Shown: piece after piece, positions 35,153-48,130 of the stretch
Layout: every line of letters begins with the position of its first letter
How positions within the stretch are numbered: the stretch's first letter is position 1
Origin: Escherichia coli
GTDB taxonomy: Bacteria; Pseudomonadota; Gammaproteobacteria; Enterobacterales; Enterobacteriaceae
NCBI RefSeq assembly: GCF_044324875.1
Contig: NZ_CP172185.1
Direction: 5' to 3' (one strand)
DNA: 64,000 nt
The notes under the pieces: generated by a model
Databases searched by the model: none
Seen by the model: the letters and a program-made list of their open reading frames with translations, nothing else
Told to the model about the DNA's origin: nothing
Made by a program: the position numbers and the translations under genes

Positions 35153-36097
35153 ATGAGTCCTGATAATATCAGTTCTGCTGTCAATCGCTTCTCAGGTTGG
35201 CCATCTAATGATCCTCTAAAAAAAGATAAAGAATCAATGACATCACCCATGACTGTGCAAGTAATAAAGATGATTGCCGCCATCCTTGATCCACATCGGA
35301 TAGTCGTTGGAATCGATACACTTTATACAACGCAGCGCGAAACATTTACCTCAGAGAGTCAACAGCTCATTGAATCAGCATTGCAAACACTTCATGTGAT
35401 GAATTTAAATAACCTGGAAACAAATCTCGATGAGGAAGGTCACTATCTGGCTTTTGGATATAACGTTGACACTCCTGACAGAATAACCGTTTCTGCTTAT
35501 AATGAAAAAAAGCCTGGCTGCTATGGTCAATGTCTTTTAATACAGGATGACGAAACAGACTTGTTTAACCTGATAAAAGTTAAAATTTTTGAAGCCAGGC
35601 ATAATTATGTCGCTCAATTGATGAGCGATCCGGGATTTATGTTCAAATTTAGTTATAGCGCTCAACAAAATAGATTAGAACCTCATCTTCTGGTTCCCAC
35701 TTATTTCCCTCTAAAAACAAACGAACCGGTTACGCAAGAGGATGTACTGTTACTTTATCGTTTCTTTAAAATGGATGGTGATTTTAATATATTAACATCA
35801 GATGAATACATGAGTATCATGACACCTCTGATGAAGTGTGAGCGCAGCATCCACGACCACAACAGGTATGTGACGGGCAAAGATACCCTTCTTCTGGACT
35901 ATCCTCCTTCTGGTAACCAGATATATTTCCATATTTTTCCTGACGAATCAGCAACACTAGTCCTTTATTTTTCAAACAATGACATTGAATGTTTCGTCTT
36001 TGAAAGAGATATTCCGAGCCAGTATCGCTTTTTCAAAATGTTTACCAATCTGGCACTGGTTATTGATCAGTTAACCGATGCCAATCAAATACTTTAA
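35153..36097 (+). CDS. Hypothetical protein (314 aa), AT-rich ORFan
   Basis: Long ORF in AT-rich DNA with a GAGG RBS 8 nt upstream; I recognise no family. Confidence 0.6.
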   Translation: MSPDNISSAVNRFSGWPSNDPLKKDKESMTSPMTVQVIKMIAAILDPHRIVVGIDTLYTTQRETFTSESQQLIESALQTLHVMNLNNLETNLDEEGHYLAFGYNVDTPDRITVSAYNEKKPGCYGQCLLIQDDETDLFNLIKVKIFEARHNYVAQLMSDPGFMFKFSYSAQQNRLEPHLLVPTYFPLKTNEPVTQEDVLLLYRFFKMDGDFNILTSDEYMSIMTPLMKCERSIHDHNRYVTGKDTLLLDYPPSGNQIYFHIFPDESATLVLYFSNNDIECFVFERDIPSQYRFFKMFTNLALVIDQLTDANQIL

Positions 36098-36177
36098 TTT
36101 TTATATATTCCCTGTGGCAAATATTGCTAAACAATGCCCGGGGATTAATTTTTATTACTCACGGAAAGATTTAAATA

Positions 36178-36600
36178 ATGATCCCATCTCAAATCTCTTT
36201 CAACACCCTTCCTGTCAATGCAACATACGCTTCAGAGACAACAGTTGACACACAAAAATTCTCTGACATCCTCTACTCAGCGGGGTGTTCCCTAAAGGAT
36301 CTGGCTTATCTGAGCAGATGTCTGGCATCAATACATCCGACTATCGCCAAAAACATTTATGAAACAGAAAATCTCAGCGATCAAAAATTACTACATATTG
36401 ATTGCCGTAGTACAAATGAAATCAAGATAAATATCTTTTTTGGTCAACAACGAGAAGGATTAATTGAAATTAGTTCTGACACAGTCATTTTTTCGATACT
36501 GTCTTCATTGATTGACTCCACCATTTCTAAATTTCAACACCAAAACCCCGTTAACGGTTCTGTAAATCCTGACCTATTGTATGAGGATTATACTGATTAA
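36178..36600 (+). CDS. Hypothetical protein (140 aa), AT-rich ORFan
   Basis: ORF immediately downstream and co-directional with the 314-aa ORF; no recognisable motifs. Confidence 0.5.
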   Translation: MIPSQISFNTLPVNATYASETTVDTQKFSDILYSAGCSLKDLAYLSRCLASIHPTIAKNIYETENLSDQKLLHIDCRSTNEIKINIFFGQQREGLIEISSDTVIFSILSSLIDSTISKFQHQNPVNGSVNPDLLYEDYTD

Positions 36601-37147
36601 ATCCCTCCTGTCGCGAAAAATGGCCTGCGTTATTGCCAGACGTAATAAAACTTTTGATTAACGTTTCTCGTACTGGTAGCACCTTCATGTACTTTTCTTT
36701 TTTACGAAAAATCAAAAGAGCTAACAAAGGTCATAATTCGCATGAATCATTAATTATTTGTTATTTTCAACATTATTTTTACATTAAGCAGAGATGAATT
36801 GCAGTGAAATTCGACTTAACTTTTATGAAATGCATTTACTCATGGCTAAAGCCACGTCACAAAAATGCAAATTAGAAGTAGATCACAAATATCTCAATAC
36901 ATCAAATCAAGTTAATTTTAAAAATTTAATATTCATGACATTAGTTGACATAACACACTGAATTATAATGAGAATTTGAAAACACACTTTAAACAATCAT
37001 TTCCCGAAAGACATTTTGAAAATAGATCAATTGCAACATTACGGTCAGATAAAGACACTCCTGTGATATTAAACCTGTGCCGTTATGAACGGCCATAAAT
37101 ACGACGTGTGTAACTTATTTTACTCTCTGTCTTACAAAGGATTACCC

Positions 37148-37597
37148 ATGAAGAAAGCAACACTTGTGATTGGCGTTATTGGCGCGGACTGCCATGCAGT
37201 AGGCAATAAAGTTCTGGACCGCGTTTTTAGCAACCATGGCTTCAGAGTCATTAATCTGGGCGTAATGGTCAGCCAGGACGAATATATTGATGCTGCCATT
37301 GAAACTGGTGCTGACGCGATTGTCGTCTCCTCTATCTATGGGCATGGCGATATCGATTGTCTGGGCATGCGCGAACGCTGCATTGAGCGTGGGCTGGGTA
37401 ACATCCTGCTCTATGTGGGCGGTAACCTGGTGGTCGGAAAACATGACTTCGCTGACGTGGAAACCAAGTTCAAAGAGATGGGATTTGATCGCGTCTTTGC
37501 CCCAAGTCATGACTTAGAAGATGTTTGTCAGCTGATGGCCCACGATATCAACCAACGTCATGACGTTGATACTCGCATTCTTGAAGAGGCAATCTGA
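37148..37597 (+). CDS. glmS: Glutamate mutase (methylaspartate mutase) S subunit, B12-binding
   Basis: B12-binding motif (GADCHAVG) and strong resemblance to clostridial GlmS/MutS; start at the ATG at 37148 (149 aa). Confidence 0.85.
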
Positions 37598-46588: not shown

Positions 46589-47191
46589 ATGGAAGCGCGA
46601 ATTTCAACTGAACGGCATGTGCAGCGCCAGCAGAAATTGAAGGAACAGGTCGATACGCGCATCGCGGCGGCGATAGAGAAAAAAGGGATTTTGATTGTTT
46701 TCACCGGCAATGGCAAAGGGAAATCCACTGCCGCGTTTGGTACTGTGACGCGCGCGGTGGGTCATGGCAAAACGGTGGGGGTTGCGCAGTACATCAAGGG
46801 GCAATGGGACAACGGCGAATACAACCTTCTCCAGCCGCTGGGGGTTGAGTTTCATATTATGGGAACCGGTTTTACCTGGGAGACACAGAACCGGCAAGCG
46901 GATATCGACGCGGCGAAAGAGGTCTGGTCGGAAAGCAAACGGATGCTGGCTGACAAGCGTTACGACTTAGTGGTGCTTGATGAGCTGACCTATATGCTGG
47001 CTTACCATTATCTGGATACCGAAGAAGTGATCGCTTCTCTGCAAAACCGCCCGGCACAACAAAGTGTCATTGTCACCGGACGCGGTTGCCACAGTCAGAT
47101 ATTAAAAATGGCGGATACGGTCAGCGAAATCCGCCCCGTCAAACATGCTTTTGATAACGGCATTCAGGCCCAGCCGGGTATCGACTGGTAA
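46589..47191 (+). CDS. Cob(I)alamin/cob(I)yrinic acid a,c-diamide adenosyltransferase paralogue (BtuR/CobO-like)
   Basis: 200 aa; P-loop (GNGKGKSTAAFG) and close resemblance to E. coli BtuR. Confidence 0.85.
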   Translation: MEARISTERHVQRQQKLKEQVDTRIAAAIEKKGILIVFTGNGKGKSTAAFGTVTRAVGHGKTVGVAQYIKGQWDNGEYNLLQPLGVEFHIMGTGFTWETQNRQADIDAAKEVWSESKRMLADKRYDLVVLDELTYMLAYHYLDTEEVIASLQNRPAQQSVIVTGRGCHSQILKMADTVSEIRPVKHAFDNGIQAQPGIDW

Positions 47192-47194
47192 TAA

Positions 47195-47221
47195 CTGCGC
47201 CTGGCATCCCGCCAGGCGCAG
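47195..47221. terminator. Bidirectional hairpin (ctgcgcctggc…gccaggcgcag) between convergent cobO-like and LysR genes
   Basis: 11-bp perfect stem followed by gtttta; seen directly. Confidence 0.6.
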
Positions 47222-47224
47222 GTT

Positions 47225-48130
47225 TTACATCTCCTGCGGTACAACCGATTTCGCCAGCAACCATTCACGAAATTGCTGCAAGTGCGGTGAGTCAGACTTC
47301 TCTTCCTGCCACGTCATAATAAAACGATTACCGGTACGAATAGGCACATCACAGGGGATCACCATATCGCCACTATCCAAATCATGTTGAATAGCGAAAC
47401 GTGGTAACAGCGCCACGCCGAGATTAGAGCGCACGGCGGCAATCAGCATTGAAAGCAAATCGAAACGTGGTCCGTTGTTGACCAGCGGACTGCTAACGCC
47501 AGATAAGGCAAACCACTCTTCCCAGCCAGTAATACGGGTACTTTGATGCAGAAGTGGTAACTCTGTAAGCAGTTCTGCCACTGACAGTTTTTGATCGGAC
47601 ATTGCAAGCAAACTGCCGCTGCATACCGGCAAAATCTCCTCATCAAAGAGATATTCTACTTCCGCCCAGGGCGCGCAAAAATTTTCGCGCATAATGACAG
47701 CATCGTACTCCCGATTAAGAAAATCGCCGTTATTAGCTAAAGAGTGAATATTAACAATAATATCGGGATGTAACTTTGTGAATTCATGTAAATTTGGGAT
47801 TAACCAGTGGGTACTAAACGTAGGATTCACGGCAAGTTCAATAACCTGAACCGTAGGCTGCCAGGTCATAATGGTATTGGTATCGCGTTCCAGCTTATTT
47901 AATGTTTCTTTTACTATCCCCAGGTAATACTTCCCTGCATCATTAAGAAAAATACGTTTTTTAGAGTGTGAAAATAACGGAGTATGTAAAAATTCCTCCA
48001 GCGCACTCACTTGTCTGAATACTGCACTTTGGGTCAACGCTAACTCCTCTGCCGCTTTGGTATAACTTTCATGACGTGCGACGACCTCAAAAGTCACCAG
48101 CAGCTCCGTTTTAGGTATTTTTCCTCGCAT
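47225..48130 (-). CDS. LysR-family transcriptional regulator
   Basis: 301 aa; N-terminal HTH (YTKAAEELALTQSAVFRQVSALEE). Confidence 0.85.
   Translation of the reverse strand: MRGKIPKTELLVTFEVVARHESYTKAAEELALTQSAVFRQVSALEEFLHTPLFSHSKKRIFLNDAGKYYLGIVKETLNKLERDTNTIMTWQPTVQVIELAVNPTFSTHWLIPNLHEFTKLHPDIIVNIHSLANNGDFLNREYDAVIMRENFCAPWAEVEYLFDEEILPVCSGSLLAMSDQKLSVAELLTELPLLHQSTRITGWEEWFALSGVSSPLVNNGPRFDLLSMLIAAVRSNLGVALLPRFAIQHDLDSGDMVIPCDVPIRTGNRFIMTWQEEKSDSPHLQQFREWLLAKSVVPQEM

Follow-up and report, generated by a model that had tools for sequence, protein, structure and literature searches.

What is encoded between cydA and sucD in an Escherichia coli genome that lacks the mngR-mngA-mngB genes found at this site in K-12, and how did the genes come to be there? 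We address this question for a 64 kb stretch of contig NZ_CP172185.1 (RefSeq assembly GCF_044324875.1), here called the window. The open reading frame (ORF) map, which covers 31-52 kb, shows cydB-cydA on the minus strand up to position 34350, a co-directional series of plus-strand genes from 35153 to 47191, one minus-strand gene (47225-48130), and finally sucD-sucC, also on the minus strand. A preliminary description of this DNA had read the block as a methylaspartate route, which is the right reading. In our judgment, the block very probably encodes a complete B12-dependent pathway that converts glutamate to pyruvate, acetate, and NH4+, and is an old occupant of a cydA-sucD hotspot. The finding is real but already known, since the cluster was published in 2015 (PMC4682846). 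We add four modest points: coexistence with mngRAB in a modular hotspot, scars of hut and rtcB, synteny across genera, and a candidate operator.

Genes and predicted steps of the glutamate pathway

Families were assigned using NCBIfam equivalog models with their curated cut-offs; Pfam was used for AtuA and DUF4387. The gene identities proposed in the preliminary description (glmS-glmL-glmE, methylaspartase, a DUF1446/DUF4387 pair, a DAACS symporter, a fumarase, an adenosyltransferase, and a LysR gene) were all correct, with models above curated cut-offs for GlmS, GlmL, GlmE, the ammonia-lyase, the fumarase, and the adenosyltransferase, and homology searches placed the proteins in the glutamate mutase, methylaspartase, and fumarase families. 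Both subunits of the adenosylcobalamin (AdoCbl)-dependent glutamate mutase are present and full-length relative to 1I9C, 1CCW, and 6H9E. The sigma subunit of glutamate (methylaspartate) mutase, which binds B12, is encoded by glmS (37148-37597, plus strand; NF002612, 252 bits, cut-off 110; TIGR01501, 245 bits). Its ORF opens at 37085, and the start at 37148 was taken from RefSeq records of the same gene. GlmS aligns to Clostridium cochlearium GlmS (1I9C) with E = 1e-50, and the DxHxxG cobalamin ligand motif (GADCHAVG) is intact. The catalytic epsilon subunit, encoded by glmE (39004-40449, plus strand; TIGR01503, 863 bits, cut-off 390), matches PDB 6H9E/1CCW at E = 7e-190 and can be aligned with the clostridial enzyme over its entire length. 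Between the two subunit genes lies glmL (mutL; 37597-38985, plus strand), which encodes the accessory or reactivating protein of the mutase (TIGR01319, 885 bits; NF040745, 507 bits, cut-off 475).

The 3-methylaspartate ammonia-lyase gene, mal (40449-41690, plus strand), scored 544 bits with TIGR01502 (cut-off 286), and its product is ~94% identical to PDB 1KKO over the full length (E = 3.6e-270). Further downstream, fumD (44927-46579, plus strand) encodes a class I Fe-S fumarase/mesaconase (NF011921, 1280 bits, cut-off 1060). FumD of O157:H7, a mesaconase/fumarase, has been characterized; it has a 2-3 fold preference for mesaconate, and kcat/Km favors mesaconate (PMC4682846). We count the mesaconase step as encoded because the FumD of the window is 98.4% identical in amino acid sequence to the copy in an O157:H7 strain, an orthologue of known activity. 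The last gene of the plus-strand series (46589-47191) encodes a cobA/cobO-type ATP:cob(I)alamin adenosyltransferase (NF004637, 296 bits, cut-off 185; TIGR00708, 247 bits, cut-off 168).

The cleavage of citramalate is assigned to a gene pair that follows mal. The first, cmlA (41694-43064, plus strand), belongs to the AtuA/DUF1446 family (PF07287) and is predicted to encode the large subunit of a CoA-independent citramalate lyase; the second, cmlB (43061-43378, plus strand), overlaps cmlA by 4 nt and encodes the putative small subunit, a DUF4387 protein (PF14330, assigned on orthologues of identical length). Neither CmlA nor CmlB has a match in NCBIfam. CmlA matched the chain named "Citramalate lyase, subunit A (cmlA)" in PDB 9ERQ_A/9EVF over 456 of 456 residues (E = 1.5e-290) with 39 differences, and CmlB matched "Citramalate lyase, subunit B (cmlB)" in 9ERQ_B over its full length (E = 5e-57). 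The gene cmlA lies directly 3' of mal in every one of 50+ loci from several phyla. The Raoultella enzyme, Cml, converts citramalate to pyruvate and acetate by direct cleavage, and growth on mesaconate was Cml-dependent, with isotope labeling as expected (bioRxiv 10.64898/2026.01.16.699985). In 2015, the DUF1446 gene was still listed as unknown and what became of citramalate was not clear; tests had ruled out citrate lyase, isocitrate lyase, and methylisocitrate lyase as the citramalate-cleaving enzyme (PMC4682846). A CitDEF-type lyase was not found in the block. The preliminary description also let the route end at citramalate after three steps and considered the downstream steps not to be established. 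This is out of date, since CmlAB is ~91% identical to the citramalate lyase of PDB 9ERQ/9EVF; four steps are encoded when CmlAB is taken to add the cleavage of citramalate. Judged from the Raoultella orthologue, we infer that CmlAB of the block is a citramalate lyase, and with this match the block would cover every step by which glutamate yields pyruvate, acetate, and NH4+.

The following sequence of steps would result, with the activities of FumD and CmlAB taken from the literature and from PDB naming. The DAACS symporter would bring in glutamate, which AdoCbl-dependent GlmS/GlmE would convert to (2S,3S)-3-methylaspartate. GlmL would keep the mutase active, and the CobA-type adenosyltransferase would make AdoCbl from imported corrinoid. 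Methylaspartate ammonia-lyase would then release NH4+ and form mesaconate, FumD would hydrate mesaconate to (S)-citramalate, and CmlAB would split citramalate into pyruvate and acetate. In E. coli, pyruvate could pass through pyruvate formate-lyase and Pta-AckA; the net conversion would be glutamate to two acetate, formate, and NH4+, redox-neutral and with a gain of one ATP. The convergent LysR regulator probably drives the unit via a T-N11-A box at 37016-37033.

The entry point of this route depends on the symporter (43539-44819, plus strand), which scored 314 bits with the DctA model (cut-off 513) and 304 bits with the GltP model (cut-off 638). It was named GltP from its gene context (PMC4682846), and we presume that it imports glutamate. 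A different possibility is that the true substrate is a C5-dicarboxylate or branched amino acid (mesaconate, citramalate, or 3-methylaspartate), supplied perhaps by other microbes or by the itaconate metabolism of the host, with the mutase being auxiliary or running in reverse. The transporter resembles the C4-dicarboxylate carrier DctA as closely as it does GltP, and mesaconate can be used with FumD and CmlAB alone (bioRxiv 10.64898/2026.01.16.699985). However, the mutase subunits, the reactivase, and a dedicated adenosyltransferase are conserved and constrained, which would be costly unless glutamate were the entry. The Citrobacter and Klebsiella versions of the cluster add a glutaminase gene (glsA) that would feed glutamate, and loci of the type found in E. 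coli strain LR-28 add a hut cluster, which likewise ends in glutamate. We therefore regard a substrate other than glutamate as improbable.

Borders, variants, and history of the cydA-sucD site

The flanks are formed by cydA (32779-34350, minus strand) on the left and sucD (48796-49665, minus strand) on the right, both recognized by NCBIfam equivalog models above their curated cut-offs. The block had been placed at 35153-48130. The ORF positions hold, but relative to the K-12/BL21-type locus the borders are wider. In a blastn map against four comparison loci (L002-L005), homology with the K-12/BL21-type locus stops at 34723, 373 bp upstream of the cydA ATG, and restarts at 48693, a short distance before the terminator hairpin of sucD (48703-48720). 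The insert measures 13.97 kb, compared to 5.9 kb for mngBAR in the K-12/BL21-type locus. The left border zone (34724-35152) is AT-rich intergenic DNA (GC 0.33), and its first part, 34724-34988, is still common to locus variants that carry a gene for a tetratricopeptide-repeat (TPR) protein. Tblastn searches with mngR, mngA, and mngB gave zero matches across the whole window, which bears out their reported lack between cydA and sucD. Also in agreement with the preliminary description, the ORF map contains no integrase or transposase ORF in the block, and a comparison of the two junction zones revealed no significant direct repeat (best E = 0.29). The block thus shows none of the marks of an integrative island (integrase or transposase, tRNA/att target, direct repeats, foreign composition).

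The GC content of the pathway genes is 0.49-0.55, with the exception of cmlB at 0.38, and the window as a whole has 0.50; both GC and GC3 of the pathway genes are host-like. The cmlB gene, with a GC3 of 0.32, adjoins cmlA with a GC of 0.55. A GC deficit of 10-17 points in cmlB relative to cmlA is also seen in most of the other Enterobacterales checked (7 points in Pseudescherichia); in GC-rich and AT-rich loci from outside this order, the gap is smaller, at 0-6 points.

The right border retains parts of genes that are complete in other strains. Window positions 48000-48538 align in blastn to E. coli LR-28 across the 5' end of the LysR gene, the spacer, and the last 138 nt of a hutH-like gene. 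Tblastn identified two minus-strand fragments of this HAL/PAL/TAL (hutH-like) lyase, 89-90% identical to the LR-28 gene: residues 511-556 of 556 at 48404-48541 (89%) and residues 378-397 at 48533-48592. They are followed on the plus strand by an internal fragment of rtcB (approximately residues 375-395, 48598-48654; tblastn, and blastn against strains A34, elppa5, and LR-28) and by the last 15 rtcB codons (48651-48695), which adjoin the sucD flank just as they do in LR-28. The same scar, with 98.6% identity, is present in O157:H7. In LR-28 (locus L073), the LysR gene is followed by a hut cluster (L073 8610-16351), rtcB, and then sucD; the six hut genes encode a HAL-family lyase, HutG, HutI, HutD, an NCS1 permease, and HutU. 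The gene rtcB encodes an RtcB-family RNA ligase, and a copy is present in L002 at 11135-12532. Because fragments of hut and rtcB remain at 48404-48695, the right border of the block was made by deletion and not by insertion.

Of 5426 complete E. coli genomes, 144 have an intact hut module; a near-complete rtcB segment occurs at this site in 145 genomes, and ~850 keep only a 57-bp vestige. Glutamate from an intact hut cluster would enter the methylaspartate route directly. We offer as a tentative idea that the block is the remaining half of a once larger catabolic unit of Escherichia, in which hut (histidine to glutamate) was coupled directly to the methylaspartate/CmlAB route; the coupled form would still be intact in the roughly 144 genomes of which LR-28 is an example. 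LR-28-type strains would then be facultative anaerobes with an "oxidative histidine pathway", and window-type strains would retain a glutamate fermentation that is redox-neutral, depends on corrinoid, and is induced via the LysR box at 37016-37033. If true, this would extend to facultative anaerobes a pathway so far ascribed to strict gut anaerobes.

The same 5426 genomes were searched for the block itself, with carriage defined as at least 80% of window positions 34000-49000. It is carried by 1116 genomes (~21%). The closest match was TUM14771 (99.4%); O157:H7 strains have 98.3% DNA identity over the block, in accord with the earlier statement that the cluster had been reported in O157:H7-type genomes (PMC4682846). 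Other cydA-sucD variants contain mngRAB alone (L005), a TPR gene and mngRAB (L004), or the TPR gene alone (L003); the TPR protein is encoded at L003 3177-4292 and L004 3391-4584. In strain A34, window positions 42335-47410 are deleted from within the block, which is followed by an intact rtcB and then mngBAR. In strain elppa5 (L072), the complete block, an IS200, the LysR gene, rtcB, and mngB-mngA-mngR are all found between cydA and sucD. The IS200C transposase gene of elppa5 (L072 15441-15899) lies between cobO and lysR and is the sole mobile-element gene seen at the locus among the genomes inspected; elppa5 is the single inspected strain with the full glm-rtcB-mng arrangement. In E. whittamii (L040) and Escherichia sp. 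E1V33 (L054), cmlB is followed by fumD and then lysR, and the symporter and adenosyltransferase genes are missing, a sign of piecemeal erosion.

The preliminary description placed the block where K-12 has mngRAB, which suggests a replacement. This does not hold: since both coexist in elppa5, the glutamate block and mngRAB are neighboring modules and not alternative alleles, and in Citrobacter amalonaticus S646 mngB-mngA-mngR lies directly to the left of glmS.

To follow the cluster outside E. coli, we scanned for CmlA in one genome per species, which yielded 61 loci that were mapped with the window proteins. Outside E. coli, genes in the order glmS-glmL-glmE-mal-cmlA-cmlB-gltP-(extra gene)-fumD-cobA, accompanied by a convergent lysR, are found between cydA and sucD in the Klebsiella oxytoca group, many Citrobacter, Salmonella enterica subsp. 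arizonae and diarizonae, Pseudescherichia vulneris, and the cryptic Escherichia clades. The six-gene core glmSLE-mal-cmlAB is also present, in the same order, in Yersinia, Hafnia, Morganella, Budvicia, Aromatoleum/Azoarcus, Telmatospirillum, Clostridiales, Desulfotomaculum, and Dictyoglomaceae. The extra gene of Citrobacter is glsA (glutaminase A), located between the symporter gene and fumD, and glsA is likewise added in Klebsiella. In Citrobacter sp. FP75 (L018), glutaminase A is encoded at 13287-14288, and a uroporphyrinogen-III C-methyltransferase and a PocR-like AraC regulator are encoded between lysR and sucD (17994-19666). These additions link the Citrobacter cluster to the supply of glutamine and to the synthesis or regulation of B12; genes for a glutaminase, a uroporphyrinogen-III methyltransferase, and a PocR-like regulator are all absent from the E. 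coli version.

Could the block be a recent foreign island that replaced mngRAB in the lineage of the window? It is accessory within E. coli (21% of genomes), the ORFan part at its left end is AT-rich and lineage-restricted, and segments of the cluster have been laterally exchanged in cryptic-clade Escherichia. Yet at least five genera have the cluster at this very site, between cydA and sucD, the composition of its pathway genes is that of the host, and neither an integrase nor a tRNA nor direct repeats accompany it. Its coexistence with mngRAB in elppa5 and C. amalonaticus, and the scars of hut and rtcB, which show deletion and not insertion at the right border, also speak against replacement, and we consider a recent island very improbable. 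Because synteny is conserved across genera, composition is host-like, and mobility genes are absent, the cluster looks like an old resident of the cydA-sucD hotspot that was reshaped by homologous recombination and deletion. In Escherichia, the hotspot would also have gathered the ORFans, the hut cluster, rtcB, and mngRAB, and the lineage of the window would have lost hut, rtcB, and mng by deletion and retained the glutamate module. The preliminary description had called the mechanism of acquisition unclear. A plausible answer is long residence, with loss or exchange through homologous recombination, which fits better than insertion by a mobile element.

Two ORFans precede the pathway genes, hyp314 (35153-36097, plus strand; 314 aa, Escherichia-restricted) and hyp140 (36178-36600, plus strand; 140 aa, Escherichia/Shigella only). 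They had been described as AT-rich, and are so with a GC of 0.37-0.38. Neither has a match in Pfam, NCBIfam, PADLOC, or PHROG. The homologues of hyp314 are only close relatives with 64-98% identity, and a HMMER scan of 1.84 billion representative proteins returned nothing beyond its own fragments. Relatives of hyp140 are confined to E. coli and Shigella and are near-identical or frameshifted. An AlphaFold model of hyp314, built from a five-sequence alignment, had a mean pLDDT of 49, too poor for a fold search. The dN/dS values of 0.33-0.40 for hyp314 and 0.21-0.29 for hyp140 suggest that the ORFans are real genes under weak constraint. Both are absent from the cydA-sucD clusters of the other taxa, except for a partial, 50%-identical remnant of hyp314 in a cryptic Escherichia (L012). 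Conversely, contig L006 has a 64%-identical copy of hyp314 between cydA and sucD and zero glm genes. On this contig, which is Escherichia-like, an unannotated 258-aa ORF without an NCBIfam match (L006 11786-12562) lies beside the diverged hyp314. The earlier inclusion of the ORFans in the co-directional set is correct for the window, but they are not members of the conserved cluster; by their distribution, they appear to be a separate Escherichia-specific module of the hotspot. A reading of rtcB and the ORFans as a defense system was rejected, as there was no PADLOC match.

Regulation, selection, and points for and against a working pathway

The six genes from glmS to cmlB are separated by gaps of at most 18 bp or overlap; the gap before gltP is 160 bp and that before fumD 107 bp. 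We infer that glmS to cobA form one transcription unit. A hairpin at 47195-47221 (plus strand; 11 pairs, 9 of them G-C), found in the terminator scan between the convergent cobA and lysR genes, is likely a bidirectional terminator that ends this unit. The minus-strand gene beyond it (47225-48130) encodes a GcvA-like regulator of the LysR family; because its score with NF008352 is below the cut-off (221 bits, cut-off 288), it is not GcvA itself. It presumably activates the operon.

A candidate operator, the LysR-type box TTGAAAATAGATCAATTG, is located at 37016-37033 (plus strand), ~115-130 bp upstream of the glmS ATG. It holds the dyad TGA-N7-TCA (37017-37029), a T-N11-A box of the LysR type, and it occurs once in the window. 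In a phylogenetic footprint, it is kept across 14 genera/species, from Escherichia to Hafnia and Yersinia, and a similar motif, CTGAAAATAGATCG, is present upstream of glmS in Telmatospirillum, an alphaproteobacterium. In Aromatoleum and Azoarcus, lysR adjoins glmS and is divergent from it, the classic LysR-type arrangement. We take TTGAAAATAGATCAATTG as the putative binding site of the LysR regulator of the cluster. An interpretation of the motif as an FNR site was rejected: the FNR consensus is TTGAT-N4-ATCAA, that is TTGA-N6-TCAA, and the half-sites here are one base too far apart (TTGA-N7-TCAA). A second conserved block, GATCACAAA, is found at ~36884-36893, ~130 bp upstream of the LysR-type box, and is common upstream of glmS from Escherichia to Buttiauxella. 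Together with AAATAAGA, which lies upstream of it in other genera, it resembles a CRP site with one good half-site. A search of 34000-49000 for Rfam elements, including the cobalamin riboswitch, found none at E <= 1. The 0.55 kb upstream of glmS are AT-rich (GC 0.32); as a speculation, this stretch and the ORFan region could be targets of H-NS.

Several observations weigh against a functional and long-resident glutamate pathway. No methylaspartase activity was detected in an O157:H7 strain; added glutamate did not permit or improve the anaerobic growth of this strain, with or without three forms of cobalamin (PMC4682846). The symporter scores below both the GltP and the DctA cut-off, and the function of CmlAB is derived from PDB molecule names and the use of the Raoultella enzyme in one preprint. 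In E. coli, lysR is convergent and at the far end of the unit, 10 kb from the motif, and a consensus sigma-70 promoter was not found near the motif; overall, the promoter scan gave no more sites than shuffled sequence. Between genera, the dS values of the cluster genes (1.1-3.5) exceed those of cydA and sucD (0.6-0.85), although in this check of strictly vertical descent the cluster dS is saturated and cydA and sucD, which are highly expressed, have a low dS. Between the cryptic-clade Escherichia L012 and the window, the dS of gltP, fumD, and cobA is 1.1-1.6, as compared to 0.10 for cydA. We conclude from the excess in these three genes that some lateral exchange took place alongside vertical descent.

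The failure to detect enzyme activity or a growth phenotype in an O157:H7 strain under all conditions tried (PMC4682846) would also be explained if the cluster were a cryptic relic in E. coli, inherited, unused, and heading for loss like the adjoining hut and rtcB. The block is missing from ~79% of complete E. coli genomes, partial deletions occur (window 42335-47410 in A34; gltP and cobA in E. whittamii and E1V33), and the AT-rich region upstream of the operon could be silenced by H-NS. Moreover, E. coli to our knowledge makes no B12 de novo, which counts toward the same explanation. A relic would, however, drift towards a dN/dS of 1 and gain frameshifts. All ten pathway genes are full-length and intact, and their dN/dS is 0.02-0.2 overall (0.03-0.2 between the window and O157:H7, 0.02-0.11 between genera); every pathway gene is under purifying selection. 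The operator-like motif upstream is also conserved. The strong purifying selection weakens the case for a relic, which we consider unlikely, and we favor a retained glutamate pathway.

On this reading of the block as a retained glutamate pathway, about one fifth of E. coli strains, O157:H7 included, hold genes that would convert glutamate to pyruvate, acetate, and ammonia with scavenged vitamin B12. Recognition of CmlAB would close the "missing step" of 2015, and the question moves from the fate of citramalate to the induction of the operon and its benefit in colonization. The conserved operator-like motif and the LysR gene provide a concrete handle on induction. More generally, one intergenic site of the core genome appears to swap modules for glutamate, histidine, and mannosylglycerate by recombination and deletion, without mobile elements.

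Relation to known systems

AtuA of the acyclic-terpene (atu) cluster of Pseudomonas belongs to the same Pfam family as CmlA, PF07287. The match of CmlA to the family profile is weak (68 bits), however, and the gene context differs; DUF4387 is a separate subunit in the block, and no genes of the terpene pathway are present here.

The haloarchaeal methylaspartate cycle is an anaplerotic cycle. Mesaconate is converted to mesaconyl-CoA by a CoA-transferase, and hydration and cleavage then proceed on CoA esters (PMC5592240). A mesaconate CoA-transferase of the haloarchaeal type was not found in the block.

The chemistry of the block is that of the methylaspartate pathway of Clostridium tetanomorphum and C. 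cochlearium, in which glutamate is converted via methylaspartate, mesaconate, and citramalate to pyruvate and acetate, and the clostridial mutase, reactivase, and ammonia-lyase are homologous to the proteins of the block. The CitDEF-type lyase of clostridia carries an acyl-carrier subunit. The clostridial mesaconase is the two-subunit MesAB, and citramalate is cleaved by this CitDEF-type complex (PMC4682846), whereas the block has the single-chain, FumA-like FumD as mesaconase and the unrelated CmlAB as lyase. The fate of pyruvate differs as well: butyrate and H2 are formed in clostridia, while mixed-acid routes would be used in E. coli.

The closest counterparts are found in enterobacteria. 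CmlAB of Raoultella planticola (PDB 9ERQ/9EVF) has the same two-subunit make-up of an AtuA/DUF1446 and a DUF4387 protein, encoded directly after mal. The glm-mal-fumD cluster of O157:H7 and other Enterobacteriaceae comprises GlmS, GlmL, GlmE, Mal, the DUF1446 protein, GltP, FumD, CobA, and a LysR-type regulator (PMC4682846), in the same order as in the window; RefSeq annotation of near-identical loci agrees with this gene content. There is no essential difference between that cluster, as reported by Kronen and Berg in 2015, and the block described here, which is the copy of another strain.

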